42,056 nucleotides of DNA from a virus (taxonomy: Duplodnaviria > Heunggongvirae > Uroviricota > Caudoviricetes), in IMG/VR virus record IMGVR_UViG_2917413769_000001, positions 1 to 42,056 of that record, one strand, 5' to 3'. Shown here one piece after another: positions 3,042 through 37,919 of this stretch (its first letter is position 1; every line of letters begins with the position of its first letter). The translations under genes and the position numbers were made by a program. The notes under the pieces were generated by a model. The model saw nothing but the letters and a program-made list of their open reading frames with translations, was not told the origin of the DNA and did no database searches.

Positions 3042-3389
3042 TCAAACAGCCACCGTTTTTTGATAGCTAATTCCATTTTTAAAAATAACGTCAATTTTAT
3101 AGGTGGGGTTAGCAGCCCCATCTACTTTTGAGATTGCCAGTGATGCGAAGTACCCGGCGAACTGCTGCTGTACCATGTTGACGTAAAAGTCCGGGTAAAC
3201 CTGCTGAACTATCGATTGCTGCGCCGGAATGCCGTACTGGGCATAAAACGGCGATTCACCCAAGCTAAGCTTCAGCGTCTGAATCAGTGTGGTCAGCCAG
3301 CCGTATGAAAAATCCCCATTAGAATCAGGCTCGACCAGTACCCACGTTTTTTTTCCGTTCTCGTCAGTGACGCGGCCCCAAGTTCTCAT
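3042..3389 (-). CDS. Baseplate protein (gpW/gp25-like position)
   Basis: 115-aa ORF, size and position consistent with gp25/W wedge proteins; by gene order. Confidence 0.3.
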   Translation of the reverse strand: MRTWGRVTDENGKKTWVLVEPDSNGDFSYGWLTTLIQTLKLSLGESPFYAQYGIPAQQSIVQQVYPDFYVNMVQQQFAGYFASLAISKVDGAANPTYKIDVIFKNGISYQKTVAV

Positions 3390-28602: not shown

Positions 28603-29206
28603 TCACCCTGCAAAGCTCAGCAACTGAGAAGCGGCGTTCTCCGCGTCGCGCTGCGTGGCAAAAGTGCGGGACAATATCCAGCGCCACAGAACATCGAGCG
28701 CGGCTTTATACAGCTGCTGGAACTCGATTTCGTCCATATTTGCGAATGAGATACTGCGGGGATGTTTGCGAAGTGTGCCGTCTGGCAACTGAATGGCGTC
28801 GTAATGCCCGTCCTCGACGATAACCCATGCGCGATAAGCATCGAATGATTTGCAGAGGCTGATCCCGTTCGTTACGCGGCGGTTTGCGACCTGATCCAGA
28901 TACTGTTCAGCAGCATCCAGAAGAGCGCCACCGTTGCCACCATATGCAGCCAGATAACTGGCATAGCCGGTAACCAGCTTGCGCTCATTGCTGGATATTG
29001 CGCCGCCTGTAGGTTCCCAGTATTCGAAACCGAGATTGAGGAGTGCGAAGAAGCGACGGTGAAACGCCGGATTGCGCACTTTTTTTAAACTCAGCCACCA
29101 GTACGTCGCCGAGTTTGATTTTTGATTGCAGAATATCGCTGGTCTCGGGCGTAGCCGGGATCAGTATTCCTGTGTAGTGCTTAATGAGTTGTAGTTCATG
29201 CGCCAT
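28603..29206 (-). pseudogene. nin-region protein (YbcN/DUF1367-like?) split by frameshift at an A7 run
   Basis: Upstream ORF (start 29206) and downstream 158-aa ORF overlap in different frames; removing one A from the run at 29080-29086 joins ...AEFKK to VRNPAFHRRFF... Confidence 0.35.
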
Positions 29207-29609: not shown

Positions 29610-29843
29610 TTAATAAAACCAGTCGTCGGCACTTTCCCATGTCTCTTGCAGGATACGTTCGACTTCATTCTTTTCCCCACCGAATATAACAAGGCCATCA
29701 CTACTTGCACGCTTAATAATTAGCTTGCAATCATCAAACTGCTTACTTAGGCGTTTTAATAGTTCAGTCTCAAGAGCCGGGACTGCCCCAACAGGAAGTT
29801 TCTTTATGCAATCAATGGTTAACTCGACTTTCACGCCCGCCAA
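29610..29843 (-). CDS. Hypothetical small protein (AT-rich moron)
   Basis: About 75 aa; same strand and island as preceding gene; start codon uncertain (TTG/GTG). Confidence 0.35.
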   Translation of the reverse strand: MAGVKVELTIDCIKKLPVGAVPALETELLKRLSKQFDDCKLIIKRASSDGLVIFGGEKNEVERILQETWESADDWFY

Positions 29844-30156: not shown

Positions 30157-30430
30157 GTTTTTGCGCTCCCTAAAATTTTATATACCTGGCAACCGTGGCA
30201 ATGCTGCTCAGTGATAGTTATGAGCGATGAGGAATCCCCAGTAATGGGCGGCTAAAATAAGACAGGCATAGAGTTTTGTGATCTACTAATTATATTGCCA
30301 ACTCAATGAGATAATCGCTATGCCTGCGAGCCGCAGTATGGCAGAAATTATTCCTGAATGTATCAGGCCCCTTTCACAAATATCGATAAAATGCATTGCT
30401 GGATGACACCTTTGCACTCGACAAAACGCA

Positions 30431-30574
30431 TCACTGACGCTGACCTGTATCGCGTATGCGGTACATACCATCCACAGAAACGTCAAGATGCTTTGCAATT
30501 GCGAAGACCATCGATTTCGGGTTTGCAGCCAGAAAATCCAGCACCGCGTTCGTATCAATTTTTTTCTTAGCCAT
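30431..30574 (-). CDS. Small protein (47 aa), function unknown
   Basis: Absent from ORF track; MAKKKIDTNAVLDFLAANPKSMVFAIAKHLDVSVDGMYRIRDTGQRQ; RBS GGGGGAG 8 nt upstream, starts 16 nt after the DnaC-like stop. Confidence 0.4.
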   Translation of the reverse strand: MAKKKIDTNAVLDFLAANPKSMVFAIAKHLDVSVDGMYRIRDTGQRQ

Positions 30575-30589
30575 AGTTCCGACTCCCCC

Positions 30590-31339
30590 TCATTTGACGA
30601 CCCGCAGGTGCGAGACGTTTTTGCGGTAGCTACCCCAGTCAAAGTTCACCCACATACCACCATCCATCTGAAGGCGATCGAGAATCCGCTCACCAAGCGT
30701 ATTCATCAGGGAGTCATAATTCAGGTTGGTCAGAATGCCGACCGGGCGCATGGAAGAGAGACGTCGATCGATAACCTGATTCAGAATCACCTTTTCGCCG
30801 TTACTCCCGCGCTGAATACCTACTTCGTCCAGGATGAGCAAACCGACACGGCAAAGGTCGTCCAATAAATCTGCTTCAGACTGGCCACCGTCGTAACATT
30901 CGCGAACTCGTAGCATCAGGTCTGGAATGGTTACCACCAGCACTGAACGCCCACCACTTAGAAGGTGGTTACCGATCGCCGCCGCAAGATGGTTTTTCCC
31001 AGTTCCCGGCGCGCCGCTGAATACGAAACTCGCGAAACCGGTACCGAAGTTATGCGCGTAGCTTTTCGCCAGTGTGTAGGCTTTGCGCTGCTCCTCGCCG
31101 GACACTTCGTAGTTTGCAAATGTGCAGTTACGATGCAGACTCTGGATGCCTGAGCGACCGAAGATTTTTTCTGTTCGCGCCTTCTGGTTCAGTTTGTCCA
31201 GTTCTTCACATCGCTTGAGGCCTTCTTCCCGCTGCCACGCCAGCAACTCAGCTGCACTGGTGAACTTTGGCTGAACGCCTGGCGGGATGAGTTTCTTCAG
31301 GCGCTCGAGCGCGCTGCCGGTACTAATCATATTTTTCAT
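30590..31339 (-). CDS. DnaC-like helicase loader (IstB-type AAA+ ATPase)
   Basis: Walker A GAPGTGKNHLAAAIG and Walker B LLILDEVG; downstream of replication initiator. Confidence 0.85.
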   Translation of the reverse strand: MKNMISTGSALERLKKLIPPGVQPKFTSAAELLAWQREEGLKRCEELDKLNQKARTEKIFGRSGIQSLHRNCTFANYEVSGEEQRKAYTLAKSYAHNFGTGFASFVFSGAPGTGKNHLAAAIGNHLLSGGRSVLVVTIPDLMLRVRECYDGGQSEADLLDDLCRVGLLILDEVGIQRGSNGEKVILNQVIDRRLSSMRPVGILTNLNYDSLMNTLGERILDRLQMDGGMWVNFDWGSYRKNVSHLRVVK

Positions 31340-31341
31340 CG

Positions 31342-32226
31342 CTACCCCCTGAACCCTGGTGGGATGGAGTTATCTGGACGGGAAATGGTATTCGGATCCC
31401 GCATACCTGACGGCGCTGCCACTTCCCAGGCTTCCTCGTAGTGTTTCGAGGGACCAAAGAACGTTGCCGCCTGTTTCACGTACTCGGTATTCAGCTTCCC
31501 TGTGGCCCTCACGAAATCGGCATAACGCCGGGTGCCATCAAGCAACTCCTGAACTGTGGCGCCTGTTTTAACCCTGGCTGTCCAGGCTTTGCAGGCGTCA
31601 GCCTTGCTGTTGCCTCCTGAACGCTTTGGATAAATCGCCCATGCCTGTTCGAAATCGTCCGGGTAGGCATTTTTTTTCGGTGATACACCACCATCGGAAG
31701 AATCATCACTCTCAGGGGGTGTGGCGGAGCCATGCCCCAAAGTGTTTTCTTCTTCCTGTTCCTGTTCCTGTTCCTGTTCCTGGTTAAGGAACGGTTCCAG
31801 AACCCTTTCAGAACCCTTTAGTTTTGCGCCTCCGATATGAGCTATCGCATCATTCATAATCCGCGCCAGCTCTGGCTTGACGGTCGATTTATCCGGCACC
31901 TGAGAAAACAGACGCATGGCCGCTATACCCTGATTTGGATTCTCAACAGGATTCCAACTCATGAAGTTCCGAATAAGAACCCATTTCGAGTCAAAATCAC
32001 GCGTTGCGAAACCGTTCTTGGATAGTTCATCAAACCCTTTCGAAACCCTTTCAGAAGTCCAGTTGAGGTCTTCCGAAACGTATCCATCAGGCAGCCGAAA
32101 ACACCCAATCATGTTCGTGTGTTGCCCCGTGAGCAGGTACAGCGCAAGCAGACGGGCATCATCAGAAACCCGACGCATTCCATCGCTTATCCAAAAAGAT
32201 GTATGCACCTTGCCGTAATCACGCAT
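31342..32226 (-). CDS. Replication initiation / replisome organizer protein (lambda O-like role)
   Basis: Start at internal ATG 32226 (GAGG RBS); upstream of DnaC-like gene; iteron-like direct repeats and an EQ linker inside the coding region. Confidence 0.6.
   Translation of the reverse strand: MRDYGKVHTSFWISDGMRRVSDDARLLALYLLTGQHTNMIGCFRLPDGYVSEDLNWTSERVSKGFDELSKNGFATRDFDSKWVLIRNFMSWNPVENPNQGIAAMRLFSQVPDKSTVKPELARIMNDAIAHIGGAKLKGSERVLEPFLNQEQEQEQEQEEENTLGHGSATPPESDDSSDGGVSPKKNAYPDDFEQAWAIYPKRSGGNSKADACKAWTARVKTGATVQELLDGTRRYADFVRATGKLNTEYVKQAATFFGPSKHYEEAWEVAAPSGMRDPNTISRPDNSIPPGFRG
31798..31819. repeat. Tandem 11-bp direct repeats CAGAACCCTTT x2 (iteron-like)
   Basis: Exact tandem duplication inside the replication initiator gene; core AACCCTTT recurs at 32042-32063. 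Confidence 0.4.
32042..32063. repeat. Tandem direct repeats (C/G)AAACCCTTTC x2 (iteron-like)
   Basis: Second pair sharing core AACCCTTT with 31798-31819, about 230 bp away in the same gene. Confidence 0.4.
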
Positions 32227-32242
32227 AAAAACCTCTGAATGC

Positions 32243-32521
32243 TTAAAGTGCTGTCGGTTCGTCAGTTTTGGCGGAGTGCTTAAAGACCATCTCAACGCAC
32301 AAAAAAACGCAGTCCTGACAGATTGAGACGCCTGGTCCGGCGACAAGAACGCCAGCAACTTCAACATTCGTCTTTCCGCAAAACGAGCATTTGTGTGTTG
32401 GCTGGATGTTTACCTCGGTACTGGTTACTGACATACTGGCCTCGCAATAACTCTCCGTTTTTGCAATCGAAGACTGCCTGTGTTGGCGCACAACAGTCTT
32501 CACCCATTCGATATCGTTCAT
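32243..32521 (-). CDS. Stand-alone ClpX zinc-binding-domain (ZBD) homolog
   Basis: [37 protein letters not shown] aligns with the ClpX N-terminal C4 zinc finger ([30 protein letters not shown], from memory); no AAA+ domain follows; alternative start at 32434. Confidence 0.55.
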
Positions 32522-32528
32522 GCCGACC

Positions 32529-33071
32529 TCACACCATACCCGGAGCCAGAGCAGCTATGCCGCTGATGACCTGCCCCATGGCTTCAGCAGGGAGCATCGC
32601 AAGCAGATGCTGAATTCCCTCACGAACTTCTTTCACCATCTGGTGATGAGGAGCGTTAAGCATCACAGCCTGTTTCGCTTCACTGATTTCCTTCTCCATC
32701 GCTGCATAACGCGTCATGAAACAATCCTGTCCGATGAGGCGCCCTCGAAATTCCAGCGGCAAAACAGCCAGGATTGCAGGAGTCAGCTGGCGGATGTTTT
32801 CGCGCGCATATCCGGTATCGCTGTCCAGCCAGCGGAAAAGCTTCTGCCGCTTACGGCTCAGGTCGTCAGGAAAATCCAGCCCGGCGCCGCCCTGCCGCTC
32901 CCATTCCTCAACGATGCTCCCGGCAACCACATCCTGGTTGTCCAGCGATGCCGACCACGCACGAACGGCAGCACGAATCTGGTCATGCTTATCCGCCGGA
33001 TCAGGTTGATTGCGATTTATCATCGCAGCGGGTGGAAACCCGGTATTTTGTTGGAATGAAATTGAATTCAC
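32529..33071 (-). CDS. Hypothetical early protein (cII/YdaT-like position)
   Basis: 180-aa ORF between cro-like gene and replication genes; no motif recognised. Confidence 0.3.
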
Positions 33072-33073
33072 GG

Positions 33074-33310
33074 TTATGCCCTCGCATCCTGCGCCGGTAA
33101 TCCATCCGTGGGGTTCGGATAGGCCGCAGGATCAATTTCGTGTGGTGTAACTTGCCAGTTCAAGAATTGGCAAAACGCACGAACACGAGAAGTTGGAACT
33201 TTCCCCGAGTTCAACCAGCGGCTAACCGCTTGCGAGGAGAGTCCCATAGCCTCCCCAATGGCTGTTTGAGTAGTGATAGATTTAACTTTACTTTTGAGTT
33301 GATCGTTCAT
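33074..33310 (-). CDS. Cro-like HTH transcriptional regulator
   Basis: 78 aa; HTH QTAIGEAMGLSSQAVSRWLN; AGGAGG RBS; divergent from repressor gene across operator region. Confidence 0.55.
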   Translation of the reverse strand: MNDQLKSKVKSITTQTAIGEAMGLSSQAVSRWLNSGKVPTSRVRAFCQFLNWQVTPHEIDPAAYPNPTDGLPAQDARA

Positions 33311-33344
33311 AACGCCTCCTTTGGCTGGAATTAAGCATATACAC

Positions 33345-33398
33345 TGAAATTTAATATTTCAATACATTACATCAATCTGTTTCAGTTACTTCTGAAAC
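33345..33398. promoter_or_regulatory. OR-like operator region: two inverted repeats sharing half-site TGAAA(Y)
   Basis: TGAAAT-N5-ATTTCA at 33345-33361 and GTTTCAG-N6-CTGAAAC at 33379-33398, in the 101-bp cro/cI intergenic region. Confidence 0.45.
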
Positions 33399-33411
33399 AC
33401 GCGGTTGTAAA

Positions 33412-33834
33412 ATGGCAATTATGAATACTGATACCAATCAAATTTTTGCTTACCGATTCAATCAATCGGCTGCAGAGCACAACTGGAATCTATCTGAAAT
33501 AGCCCGTCGCGTAGGAGTTACGCCGCAGGCGGTACAGAAGTGGGCGAAAGGATCGTCAGTACCTCGAGGAAAGAAGTTAAAGCAACTAGCTGACGTTATG
33601 GGTCGGCCTGAACATTGGTTCTTCATGGCTCCCAATGCAGAAAGTGGGGAGGTAATTTCTCAGCAATCAATTCTCAAAAAGCTTGATGTAACTGAAGAAG
33701 CACTGCTTTCAATCTTCAATCAGCTCCCCGAGTCAGAAAAACATCGATTGATTCTCCACGCTAAAGGTGTATTGCAAGACCTGCAATCACTGAAAGATGA
33801 CGTAAGCGATCTGATTAAACACCTCAAAAACTAA
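33412..33834 (+). CDS. CI-like repressor (HTH; no LexA/S24 autocleavage domain seen)
   Basis: 140 aa; HTH LSEIARRVGVTPQAVQKWAKG; C-terminal half lacks a Ser-Lys peptidase-like motif. Confidence 0.55.
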   Translation: MAIMNTDTNQIFAYRFNQSAAEHNWNLSEIARRVGVTPQAVQKWAKGSSVPRGKKLKQLADVMGRPEHWFFMAPNAESGEVISQQSILKKLDVTEEALLSIFNQLPESEKHRLILHAKGVLQDLQSLKDDVSDLIKHLKN

Positions 33835-33896
33835 CCTTCCCTTTCAATAGCACTGGCAATGTCCGGTGTTTTGCACGCCATTAATTACTAATTAAA

Positions 33897-33936
33897 GTTT
33901 CATGTTCTTGACAAATGAAACTCAATGTTGTAGTTT
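33897..33936 (+). promoter_or_regulatory. OL/pL-like element: operator half-sites flanking a -35 TTGACA
   Basis: GTTTCA-N13-TGAAAC at 33897-33921 encloses TTGACA (33908-33913); candidate -10 TAGTTT at 33931-33936 (17-nt spacer). Confidence 0.35.
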
Positions 33937-35036: not shown

Positions 35037-37919
35037 ATGGAATTCTTCTACGTGGTTAAAGCCACTCAGAAATCTGGCAAACCAGATGCAGTCGTCTGGT
35101 TCACTGCGAAAACCGAAGCCCGCGCCAATCTTCGACTCGACGTTGCGCTGGAAGAGGCAGAAATCGAAACCGGTCGCGGGCAGGACTACAACAAACCTGC
35201 ACGTACTAATTTTCCGGTAGTTGATGATCTTCCAGAAGAAGGCGTTGTGGATTTAACCTGGTGCGATCGCTATGAGCTGAAAGAGGACGGCATCAACTGG
35301 GAAAAAATAGTGGTGGCCGAAGTACCCGCGGCGACGGAAGTCACCGCGAACGGCGGCGAAACCATTGACCCTGATCTCAGGGTTGATGCGGACGACGACG
35401 ATAAAACCGAATATCCGGTTGCAGAAATGGCCTTCAGCCGTCGACTGCTCTCGCAGTTCATCAGCGATGCGACAGCCCATCACATCAATCATTCTCAGCG
35501 TGTTCAGATTATCAAGCTGTCACAGGATGATGAAAACCACTATGTCCAAAACCTGCTTCTTGCGGTCAGAAATGTCCCCGAGCTGGAAAAGTTAAGTACG
35601 GCGCAGCTCTGGAAATTCACTGACGCAATCAAAACTGTTTTCCATACAGAAAAACGTCATGAGCTGTCAATCGTCCTCCGTTTCACCAGAATATGGGCTG
35701 CAAATGATTACATTGACCGTGGCATCCTGGCTCGCGAGTGGGCTGCCGGTAATCGCATCAGTAGCGTGCAGCGTACTGATTCCGGAACCAATGCCAACGG
35801 CGGTTACGTCACTGACCGTGGCGAAGGTGCACACCACACGCTGGATACTCTCGATTCAGAGATTGCCTGCGCCCTTCTGCCTATGGACTTCAACCACTTC
35901 GAGATCCCGGGCAGCATTCTTCGTCGCGCTAAAGAAATCGTGACCAAAAAAGAAGAGCCGTGGAAATCATGGAGCACCATTCTGCGCAATCAACCCGGCG
36001 TTCTTGGCGTTAACCGCACAGCTATTTTTAACCTGATACGTATCGCGCCGGAAAATATTCACCTGACGCCGGTTGCTCATCTGGAGTTCGTTAACCAGAC
36101 CATGACAGCTGAGTTCAATTCCGCGGTTGAGTTATTGCCATTGCATGAAGCTGAGCCCGCAACACAGGGTATTCCCCAACCTGAAAGTAAGGAGCCTCCG
36201 CGCAAATCCTTCTGCACTCACGAAGAGTACCTGAAACGCGTGTGTGAAGAAGGAGCACGCCGCCGCGCAGAGGAGGCGGCAGCACAACCACATAAAGCCG
36301 AACAAGAACTGGTTAAAAATGTCGGAAACGGAATATTCGACGTTACGGCTTTACTGCAGAACTCAGCAACTCATGGCACGAAAAAGGCTACGGAAACCAC
36401 CAGCAATGTGCAGGTTCAAGAAACTGTCAGTGATGAAAAACAGGTTGGTAATGAAATGCAGTCAGGCGAAAGCAGTCTGGAAACTGGTGAAGAGTCACAT
36501 CCCGGCCAGCAGGCCGATGTAAACCAAAATACGGAATCTGTCGCCCAAAATAGCGATTCTGTAAACCAGACTGAACCAGTTTTGGCACACGCCGAGCCAG
36601 AGGCGCAATCTGACGAACAAGCGGTTGTTTACCCCGCTTACTTCGAGCCTGGTCGCTATGAAGGTCTGCCGAACGAGGTTTACCACGCCGCCAACGGCAT
36701 CAGTTCCACCCAGGTAAAAGATGCGCGCGTTTCGCTGATGTACTTCAATGCGCGCCACGTTGAGAAAACCATCGTCAAAGAGCGATCCGCAGTGCTGGAC
36801 ATGGGAAACCTGGTACATGCGCTGGCGTTGCAGCCAGAGCAGCTCGATGAAGAATTTAGCGTTGAACCCGTAATTCCGGAAGGCGCATTTACCACCACGG
36901 CAACGATCCGCTCGTTTATTGATGCGTACAACGCCAGCCTGCCAGCGCAACTGAGCGCAGACGATATCAAAGCTTTGCTGGAAAAGTACAACGCCACCCT
37001 GCCAGCGCTGGTGTCGCTGGGCGCTGGCCTGGATGAAACGGCGCAGAACTATATGGCGCTGCCAGCTGAATTCCAACGTATCGATGCAGACCAGAAGAAG
37101 ACAGCAACAGCAATGAAGGCGTGCATCAAAGAGTACAACGCCACCCTGCCAGCGCAGATTAAAACCAGCGGCAGCCGCGACGCGCTACTCGAACAACTTG
37201 CGATTATCAATCCTGACCGGGTCGCGCAGGAAGCTCAGAAGCTGCAACCGCTGAAAGTCTCTGGCACGAAGGCCGATCTGATTCTGGCAGTGAAAGCTGT
37301 CAACCCGGAAGCCGTATTTGCCGACGAACTGATCGATGCATGGCGCGAAAACCCGGAAGAAAAAGTACTGGTTACCCGCCAGCAACTGAGTACCGCATTA
37401 GCCATTCAGAAAGCCCTTCTTCAGCACCCGACCGCCGGCAAGCTGCTGACTCACCCGAGCCGAGCCGTTGAGGTGAGCTACTTCGGGTTTGACGACGAAA
37501 CTGGGCTGGAAGTCCGTGTGCGTCCGGATCTGGAAATCGACCTGGACGGCGTGCGTGTCGGCGCAGACCTGAAAACCATCAGTATGTGGAGTGTTAAGCA
37601 GGAAAGCCTGCGCGCCAGGCTACACCGGGAAATTATTGAACGTGATTATCACCTGAGCGCGGCTATGTACTGCGAAACCGCGGCGCTGGATCAGTTCTTC
37701 TGGATATTCGTCAACAAAGACGAGAACTACCACTGGATCGCCATTATTGAGGCATCCGCAGACCTGCTGGAACTGGGCATGCTTGAGTACCGCAAAATGA
37801 TGCGCGCTATTGCAACCGGCTTCGACACTGGGGAATGGCCAGCGCCGATCATTGATGATTACACCGACGAACTTAACGACTTCGACCTGCGCCGCCTTGA
37901 AGCGCTGCGACTGGCTTAA
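35037..37919 (+). CDS. recE: RecE-like exonuclease VIII (C-terminal PD-(D/E)xK nuclease)
   Basis: 960 aa; N-terminal NFPVVDDLPEEG and DRGILAREWAAGNRIS...GGYVTDRGEG resemble RecE as recalled; C-terminal VRPDLEIDLDG...ADLKT nuclease motif; followed by RecT-like gene. Confidence 0.75.
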   Translation: MEFFYVVKATQKSGKPDAVVWFTAKTEARANLRLDVALEEAEIETGRGQDYNKPARTNFPVVDDLPEEGVVDLTWCDRYELKEDGINWEKIVVAEVPAATEVTANGGETIDPDLRVDADDDDKTEYPVAEMAFSRRLLSQFISDATAHHINHSQRVQIIKLSQDDENHYVQNLLLAVRNVPELEKLSTAQLWKFTDAIKTVFHTEKRHELSIVLRFTRIWAANDYIDRGILAREWAAGNRISSVQRTDSGTNANGGYVTDRGEGAHHTLDTLDSEIACALLPMDFNHFEIPGSILRRAKEIVTKKEEPWKSWSTILRNQPGVLGVNRTAIFNLIRIAPENIHLTPVAHLEFVNQTMTAEFNSAVELLPLHEAEPATQGIPQPESKEPPRKSFCTHEEYLKRVCEEGARRRAEEAAAQPHKAEQELVKNVGNGIFDVTALLQNSATHGTKKATETTSNVQVQETVSDEKQVGNEMQSGESSLETGEESHPGQQADVNQNTESVAQNSDSVNQTEPVLAHAEPEAQSDEQAVVYPAYFEPGRYEGLPNEVYHAANGISSTQVKDARVSLMYFNARHVEKTIVKERSAVLDMGNLVHALALQPEQLDEEFSVEPVIPEGAFTTTATIRSFIDAYNASLPAQLSADDIKALLEKYNATLPALVSLGAGLDETAQNYMALPAEFQRIDADQKKTATAMKACIKEYNATLPAQIKTSGSRDALLEQLAIINPDRVAQEAQKLQPLKVSGTKADLILAVKAVNPEAVFADELIDAWRENPEEKVLVTRQQLSTALAIQKALLQHPTAGKLLTHPSRAVEVSYFGFDDETGLEVRVRPDLEIDLDGVRVGADLKTISMWSVKQESLRARLHREIIERDYHLSAAMYCETAALDQFFWIFVNKDENYHWIAIIEASADLLELGMLEYRKMMRAIATGFDTGEWPAPIIDDYTDELNDFDLRRLEALRLA

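Follow-up and report, generated by a model that had tools for sequence, protein, structure and literature searches.

The zinc-binding domain (ZBD) at the N-terminus of ClpX is an adaptor hub, and ClpXP controls both the turnover of lambda O and Mu transposition. As reported in 2003 by Wojtyra et al., lambda O and SspB have their primary binding site in this domain. Small proteins that blunt AAA+ proteolysis include lambda RexB, T4 PinA and the anti-adaptors IraD, IraM and IraP. RexB has been proposed to prevent ClpXP-driven antitoxin loss and abortive infection. Lambda O, MuA, UmuD′ and SspB dock on the ClpX ZBD (PMC8808172, PMC7804408). Its hydrophobic side pocket, the lambda O and trigger factor pocket, contains F16 and I46 (numbered without Met1), which overlap the lambda O site (PMC7804408). 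L12, L13 and H23 (numbered from Met1) are required for binding of the MqsA degron, as determined by mutagenesis; H23 is also implicated in binding of the SspB tail (PMC8808172). The ClpX-binding (XB) peptide of SspB is RGGRPALRVVK-COOH (PMC3983244, PMC8808172). It binds the ZBD at 35–80 nM and, as the anchor of a bifunctional peptide, suffices to send a bound, untagged protein to ClpXP (PMC12373786). Peptides of RssB gave the ZBD-binding consensus L-[KR]-x-h, and the isolated ClpX ZBD supplied in trans inhibits the degradation of sigma-S that RssB mediates (PMC7226468). ClpC2, a partial homolog of ClpC1, is a stand-alone sponge (PMC10030653). A literature search for functional studies of stand-alone or phage ClpX zinc fingers, of phage ClpX inhibitors, or of helicase loaders together with ClpXP returned none.

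The gene considered here belongs to a 42,056-nt virus sequence (IMG/VR; Caudoviricetes), called the window below. The preliminary description had proposed that an open reading frame at positions 32243–32521 (minus strand; 92 aa; containing CSFCGK) encodes a stand-alone homolog of the ClpX ZBD, devoid of an ATPase domain. It named a search with the zf-C4_ClpX profile as a check and a better alignment of the cysteine motif to an unrelated zinc ribbon as counter-evidence. The profile (PF06689) matches the 92-aa frame with 43.8 bits (E = 2.4e-11; curated gathering cut-off 27 bits), over frame residues 44–79 and profile positions 2–37 of 39. In a sequence search of all PDB chains, matches down to E = 5e-4 are exclusively ClpX (6SFW, 2DS5, 1OVX, 9NDJ, 8E91, 2DS7, 6VFS); the next is the ribosomal zinc ribbon eL43, at E = 0.06 only, so the assignment to the ClpX domain stands. 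An AlphaFold model (pLDDT 77, from 26 homologs) contains zinc-ribbon hairpins and a C-terminal helix, as in 1OVX and 2DS5. The top eight Foldseek matches of this model in the PDB are ClpX, namely one CLPX-CLPP integrative model followed by seven ClpX ZBD chains, with rmsd 0.8–1.5 Å over 36–42 residues at 45–53% identity; the 0.8 Å overlay is on the crystal structures 2DS5/2DS6/2DS8. All further matches have E > 1. Cysteines C16, C19, C39 and C42 (CxxC...CxxC) align with ClpX C15, C18, C37 and C40 and are 96–100% conserved among 67 family sequences. An AAA+ module is absent, as had been proposed: the ClpX equivalog model TIGR00382 gives 32.7 bits (cut-off 370.75), and matches of the protein to TIGR00382 and NF003745 are limited to model positions 8–48. 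The protein is slightly acidic; a count over its sequence gives a net charge of about −2, a point against DNA binding. An unrelated zinc ribbon or DNA-binding finger is thus rejected, sequence and fold searches giving ClpX only. By sequence and predicted fold, the protein is a descendant of the N-terminal substrate- and adaptor-docking domain of ClpX. Zinc binding and dimerisation, together with any binding partner and any effect on proteolysis, we infer. The hydrophobic core is conserved with ClpX in the 67 sequences and is compatible with a dimer, the model itself being of a monomer. Public databases already contain an identical protein, from Escherichia sp. E1130, under the name 'ClpX C4-type zinc finger protein'. 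Of the four PHROG families that match, one carries the label 'protease' and the other three are of unknown function.

The gene is shorter than first described. The frame at 32243–32521 exists; its start had been placed 29 codons too far upstream. Translation begins at an internal ATG at 32434 (M30 of the long frame), preceded by a GAGG Shine-Dalgarno sequence at 32440–32443, five bases upstream. Both ATG and Shine-Dalgarno sequence are kept in 58 of 58 unique relatives. In many relatives the frame is closed eight codons before this ATG, with no start codon available upstream. Column variability at codon positions 1, 2 and 3 is 0.098, 0.080 and 0.287 in the 63-codon core; in the 29-codon extension it is flat (0.151, 0.14 and 0.13), the DNA being well conserved. 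The closed upstream frame and the confinement of third-position variability to the core define a product of 63 aa (32243–32434, minus strand), the length that NCBI usually calls for this protein. The 92-aa frame is rejected as the gene on the same grounds, and the remaining 87 nt (32435–32521, minus strand) are a non-coding leader. Purifying selection at the protein level is evident from the codon pattern.

The surface was compared by aligning the 67 family sequences with E. coli ClpX. Kept are the four cysteines, S-F between the first pair, G-K, E-V, the hairpin L-I-A-G-P-x-V-x-I (LIAGP being L30-I31-A32-G33-P34 in this protein), and V41, L43, I47 and I48. Residues of the side pocket are present: F18 (99%) stands for F16, and position 49, for I46, is I (76%), M or V. 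The ligand site of the SspB tail and the MqsA degron is not conserved. L12 and L13 are replaced by T13 and H14, both conserved, and H23 by V24, which is variable (V/N/I). More broadly, ClpX K11-L12-L13-Y14 corresponds to P12-T13-H14-K15 (PTHK), conserved in the family. ClpX Y35 is S or C (position 37), and D42, N45 and R49 are F44, V47 and F51, a new hydrophobic stripe on one face of the helix. A one-residue loop insertion relative to ClpX occurs in 59% of the family; in the protein of the window the spacer between the cysteine pairs is one residue longer. With L12, L13 and H23 replaced, the domain is not a faithful copy of the ligand site, and canonical ligands may not bind. Judged from the alignment, it is a re-tooled copy of the ClpX docking surface, and conservation of PTHK, S/C37 and F44/V47/F51 points to a changed or additional partner.

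Features follow each other on the minus strand in the order promoter-like site, YdaS/Cro-like gene, YdaT/CII-like gene, leader with hairpin, ZBD gene, initiator gene, DnaC-like loader gene. The promoter-like site (TTGAAA, 17 nt, TATGCT; 33334–33362, minus strand; pattern match only) is the sole one found by consensus scan on the minus strand within 30400–33900, and is probably a pR-like early promoter. The first gene of the early operon encodes a YdaS/Cro-like repressor (33074–33310, minus strand; Pfam YdaS_toxin, HTH families; PHROG 35). The second encodes a YdaT/CII-like regulator (32529–33071, minus strand; Pfam YdaT_toxin, E = 3.5e-46; PHROG 163, CII-like) and lies immediately upstream of the leader. 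A divergent cI-like repressor is located at 33412–33834. The ZBD gene lies just upstream of the replication initiator gene, in agreement with the preliminary description: it ends with a stop at 32243, and the initiator begins with the ATG at 32226, after a gap of 17 nt that contains the initiator's own AGAGG. The consensus scan gives no promoter-like or terminator-like site between the two genes. With a single promoter-like site, upstream of the cro-like gene, and no separating terminator or promoter, the ZBD gene is probably an early lytic gene co-transcribed with cro, cII, initiator and loader; the co-transcription with the initiator proposed earlier is likewise probable. A moron-like gene with its own promoter and terminator was considered and rejected, neither being found by the scan. 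The replication genes are followed downstream by a DinI-like gene (29610–29843, minus strand) and a DUF1367 gene (28603–29079, minus strand). Across the immunity region from them stands a 960-aa open reading frame (35037–37919, plus strand), in the position of an annotated exodeoxyribonuclease VIII (RecE-like) gene of related Klebsiella and Salmonella phages. The layout is typical of a Rac/Gifsy-like prophage.

The replication initiator (31342–32226, minus strand; 294 aa, starting MRDYGKV) matches PHROG 1701 (E = 9e-105) and several 'replication initiation protein' PHROGs. The complete frame (31342–32367, minus strand; 341 aa) begins inside the ZBD gene in another reading frame. Profile matches extend from residue 48 on, so the true start is the ATG at 32226. 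An acidic (EQ)n linker is encoded by TTCCTG repeats at 31747–31776. Origin iterons were looked for inside the initiator gene and none were found. Three otherwise different initiator types paired with this loader clade have the C-terminal motif IP(P/N/S/T)GFRG in common. One initiator of the lambda O family that follows a ZBD gene (L113/L114, 4167–5213) carries LRKVK five residues from its C-terminus (...FKTLRKVKEGSL). This is an L-R-x-V-K match, absent from the sister variant L115, and may be due to chance. A degron common to the initiators is rejected: N-termini differ by type, and the LRKVK of one Rep_O variant is not general.

Within the leader, at the junction of the cII and initiator regions, lies a conserved 12-bp hairpin (32469–32501; strand unassigned). 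Pairing is kept in 95.5% of cells, with compensatory changes in 6 of 12 pairs; 0 of 500 shuffles reach the observed values. Rfam gives no family match for the hairpin. It is seen across loci L001–L118 and occurs also in loci without a ZBD gene, e.g. Gifsy-1 (L084, 2453–2485). In most relatives a T-run follows the hairpin on the opposite (plus) strand. Mismatches read on the gene strand are mostly A·C (9, versus 3 G·U). With these two features the hairpin looks like a terminator of antisense RNA, and it may be that of an oop-like RNA. A possible antisense promoter is located at 32409–32437 (plus strand; TTTACC, 17 nt, CATACT, the latter CATAAT in some relatives), its −10 element overlapping the ZBD start codon. 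Its elements are kept in 54 of 58 unique sequences, but coding constraint confounds this count, and in the scan the match does not reach the threshold. A transcript from this promoter to the hairpin would be about 65 nt long and complementary to the ribosome-binding site of the ZBD gene.

The gene following the initiator (30590–31339, minus strand; 249 aa) is, by profile and structure-database matches, that of a DnaC-family helicase loader (PRK12377/PF01695; also PHROG 50). It matches E. coli DnaC (6QEL) with E = 8e-74 and NCBIfam PRK12377 (NF009043) with 437 bits (cut-off 389). Its C-terminus is ...SYRKNVSHLRVVK-COOH, ending SHLRVVK. The tail HLRVVK-COOH is encoded at 30593–30610 (minus strand), and its last five residues, LRVVK, are the last five of the SspB XB peptide. 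E. coli DnaC is alignable only to loader residue 243 and is without the tail motif. In the model the tail has pLDDT <50 and no predicted secondary structure, the whole model being poor (65). An HLRxVK tail is found in most ZBD loci and in 120 protein clusters at ≥71% identity; loaders at 58–59% identity are without it. Within the motif L, R, V and K are kept, whereas x varies freely (P, A, I, V, L, S or T), a pattern that fits the L-[KR]-x-h consensus. The tail is also present on STM2625 of Gifsy-1 (L084, 3501–4250; Salmonella LT2), on gp51 of SPN3UB (L085) and in loci L086–L110. For the loader clade with HLRxVK, this motif predicts tethering to the ClpX N-domain. Strict co-occurrence of ZBD and LRxVK tail is rejected: most tail-bearing loaders have no ZBD neighbour, and one ZBD stands with a tail-less loader. 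ZBD genes occur also in modules without any DnaC-like loader. Tail and ZBD are thus independent features that both point at ClpX; taken as a ClpX-related pair, they are a lead drawn from sequence.

Relatives of the ZBD occupy the same slot in more than 100 enterobacterial prophages. Loci in IMG/VR that encode relatives number 102, and 80 of these were used for synteny. Among the 80 loci the gene lies about 15–20 nt before the initiator gene (with a larger gap in two), and the order ZBD, initiator, loader is kept in nearly all; six have another initiator type in the slot. At least three initiator types occur in this set, and the upstream CII-like gene is 27 to 69% identical. Stop codon of the ZBD and start codon of the initiator often overlap in family loci. 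Diverged members are about 50–60% identical, all have PTHKCSFC...G.GV.IC...F, and occupy the same slot in other modules. In E. coli, Phage_CII and DUF2740 come before the ZBD, and a Phage_rep_O initiator and a DnaB-type helicase after it; in Salmonella and Enterobacter, Phage_CII comes before it, and an HTH_36 initiator and a lambda-P-like loader after it; in Serratia it stands with an O-like initiator and a different, tail-less DnaC loader. Over all modules the gene stands ahead of at least five initiator types, served by three helicase-delivery arrangements (DnaC-like, DnaB-like and lambda-P-like). Small PF06689 proteins number in the thousands in a profile search, the best 120 all being 42–130 aa long; at least one of the distant members lies outside a phage context. 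A close relative is present in only three lambdoid phages among 50,697 deposited phage genomes, with the same gene order in both of the two inspected. DNA of the window is absent from complete genomes of E. coli; a diverged E. coli family member (P0210) exists. In the P2-like phages PhiR44_2 (Escherichia phage; L003, 3824–4156) and P88, a gene two places downstream of replication gene A encodes 110 aa whose C-terminal part is a ClpX-type zinc finger (44–47% identity over the finger). The P88 feature at this position is annotated as a carboxylate-amine ligase.

The gene is optional. With one genome per species, 22 of 26 loci of this loader clade are without it but retain the LRxVK tail; Gifsy-1, SPN3UB and Klebsiella phage ST13-OXA48phi12.4 are among the phages that lack the gene. 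Identical initiator N-termini are seen in loci that have the gene and in loci that lack it, so that the ZBD counts as an accessory and not as an obligatory subunit of the initiator. In three loci without it (L087, about 3060–3125; L089; L109) leader, ATG-TCA start and 3′ flank are all retained around a 15-codon open reading frame (MSEKSAFRKIDGPPL) that ends just before the initiator Shine-Dalgarno sequence. This frame apparently results from an internal deletion of the zinc finger.

The reading preferred here, given a probability of roughly 0.4, is that the protein mimics the ClpX N-domain and thereby protects the replication proteins of the phage against ClpXP. It would occupy ligands that otherwise dock on ClpX, or form pairs with the N-domains of ClpX itself. 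In both cases ClpXP would capture phage replication proteins less readily by way of its N-domains while the replication complex is being assembled. The most concrete candidate client in the window is the loader, through its LRVVK tail; a client common to the whole family could be the initiator, as with lambda O. A decoy interfering with ClpXP had already been suggested from the sequence, and the suggestion holds in part: the free-ZBD precedent, the neighbours of the lambda O family and the LRVVK of the loader speak for it; replacement of L12, L13 and H23 and dispensability of the gene speak against. The same two points weigh on the mimic as a whole, the optional gene (22 of 26 loci without it) and a ligand site so changed that canonical ligands may not be bound. 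Its occurrence in one slot with DnaC-like, DnaB-like and lambda-P-like partners would be explained by a host-side target common to all. The rival that dispenses with ClpX altogether makes the protein a replication accessory, a small dimeric module that would bind the initiator, host DnaB or a replisome part through PTHK and F44/V47/F51 and aid origin assembly. Its place directly before the initiator is invariable, and the frequent stop/start overlap, the purifying selection, the departure from ClpX exactly at the known ligand site and the new hydrophobic helix face all suit such a role. It is nevertheless somewhat unlikely, for the gene is dispensable to identical initiator types and stands before at least five unrelated initiator N-terminal domains and three helicase-delivery systems, so that no phage replication protein is common to all. 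Conservation of the PTHK surface across all module types, including those with unrelated initiators, suggests instead a common partner, probably of the host.

Another reading is a general reprogramming of ClpXP, in which mixed dimers with ClpX N-domains, or a sponge for adaptors (SspB, RssB, UmuD), would produce a global block of N-domain-dependent proteolysis in the course of lytic growth. One possible outcome would be that ClpXP-driven antitoxin loss, and with it toxin-antitoxin abortive infection, does not occur. In its favour, the hydrophobic core positions presumed to make up the dimer interface are conserved between the family and ClpX; the mosaic context suits a host target that is conserved; the ClpX N-domain captures the MqsA antitoxin (PMC8808172); and ClpC2 sets the precedent of a stand-alone partial Clp ATPase homolog as sponge (PMC10030653). 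This broader role is clearly unlikely: adaptor tails may not bind a domain in which L12, L13 and H23 are replaced, and a purely global function leaves the fixed place beside the replication genes unexplained. Shielding of the replication proteins may also be extended to a module in which the two members of a ClpX-tethering pair occur together. Through its LRVVK tail the loader would attract host ClpX, which would strip or destroy it once the helicase is loaded, and the co-expressed ZBD would mask the tail or cap the ClpX N-domains until the origin complex forms. Such a cycle would resemble the release of lambda P by DnaK/DnaJ/GrpE and the remodelling of the MuA transpososome by ClpX; the odds on it are long. 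If true, phage replication initiation would include ClpX as an inbuilt, timed agent of disassembly, adjusted through a phage copy of its docking domain. Finally, the frame might serve mainly as a leader coupling ribosomes to the initiator start, or as carrier of the antisense promoter, the protein mattering little. The relatives that keep leader, ATG-TCA start and 3′ flank around 15 codons before the initiator Shine-Dalgarno sequence, and the overlap of the possible antisense −10 element with the start codon, are compatible with this. The chance is very small, however, given that codon positions 1 and 2 vary three times less than position 3 and that the four cysteines and about 20 other residues are near-invariant across 50–100% identity.

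Already known is the family name in databases; new are the fixed position in the replication module, the re-tooled surface and the functional hypothesis. If the shielding of replication proteins is true, a free copy of the N-domain encoded by a phage would add a new class to the viral modulators of host proteolysis and would be a ready-made tool to switch off N-domain-dependent degradation. The fixed slot before unrelated initiators suggests a general link between lambdoid replication and ClpX, so far studied for lambda O only. If neither proteolysis modulation nor loader tethering holds, the family would still be a clean case of domain capture and re-tooling by phages.

Compared with described systems, RexB, PinA, IraD/IraM/IraP and ClpC2 have in common with this protein the concept of a small protein guarding substrates from an AAA+ protease. 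ClpC2 differs in binding an antibiotic and not a substrate. To our knowledge, none of these proteins is a ClpX N-domain homolog and none occurs in the slot between cII and initiator. The loader resembles the tethering motifs of SspB (XB), UmuD and RssB (LKxh) in ending LRVVK-COOH; the SspB motif is carried by an adaptor, whereas the phage motif, as read from the sequences, is on a DnaC-family loader, also in prophages without a ZBD gene. ClpX itself is matched in the C4 zinc ribbon with C-terminal helix, CSFCGK, the LIAGP-V-IC hairpin and the F16/I46 pocket. Unlike ClpX, the phage domain is without AAA+ fusion and is prophage-encoded in a replication module. Closest in manner of action would be the isolated E. 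coli ClpX ZBD in vitro, which as a free domain competes against ClpX for RssB and makes sigma-S degradation slower (PMC7226468). That ZBD is a fragment made in the laboratory, its ligand site being the native one, and was used in micromolar excess, whereas the phage ZBD is a natural, diverged gene product.
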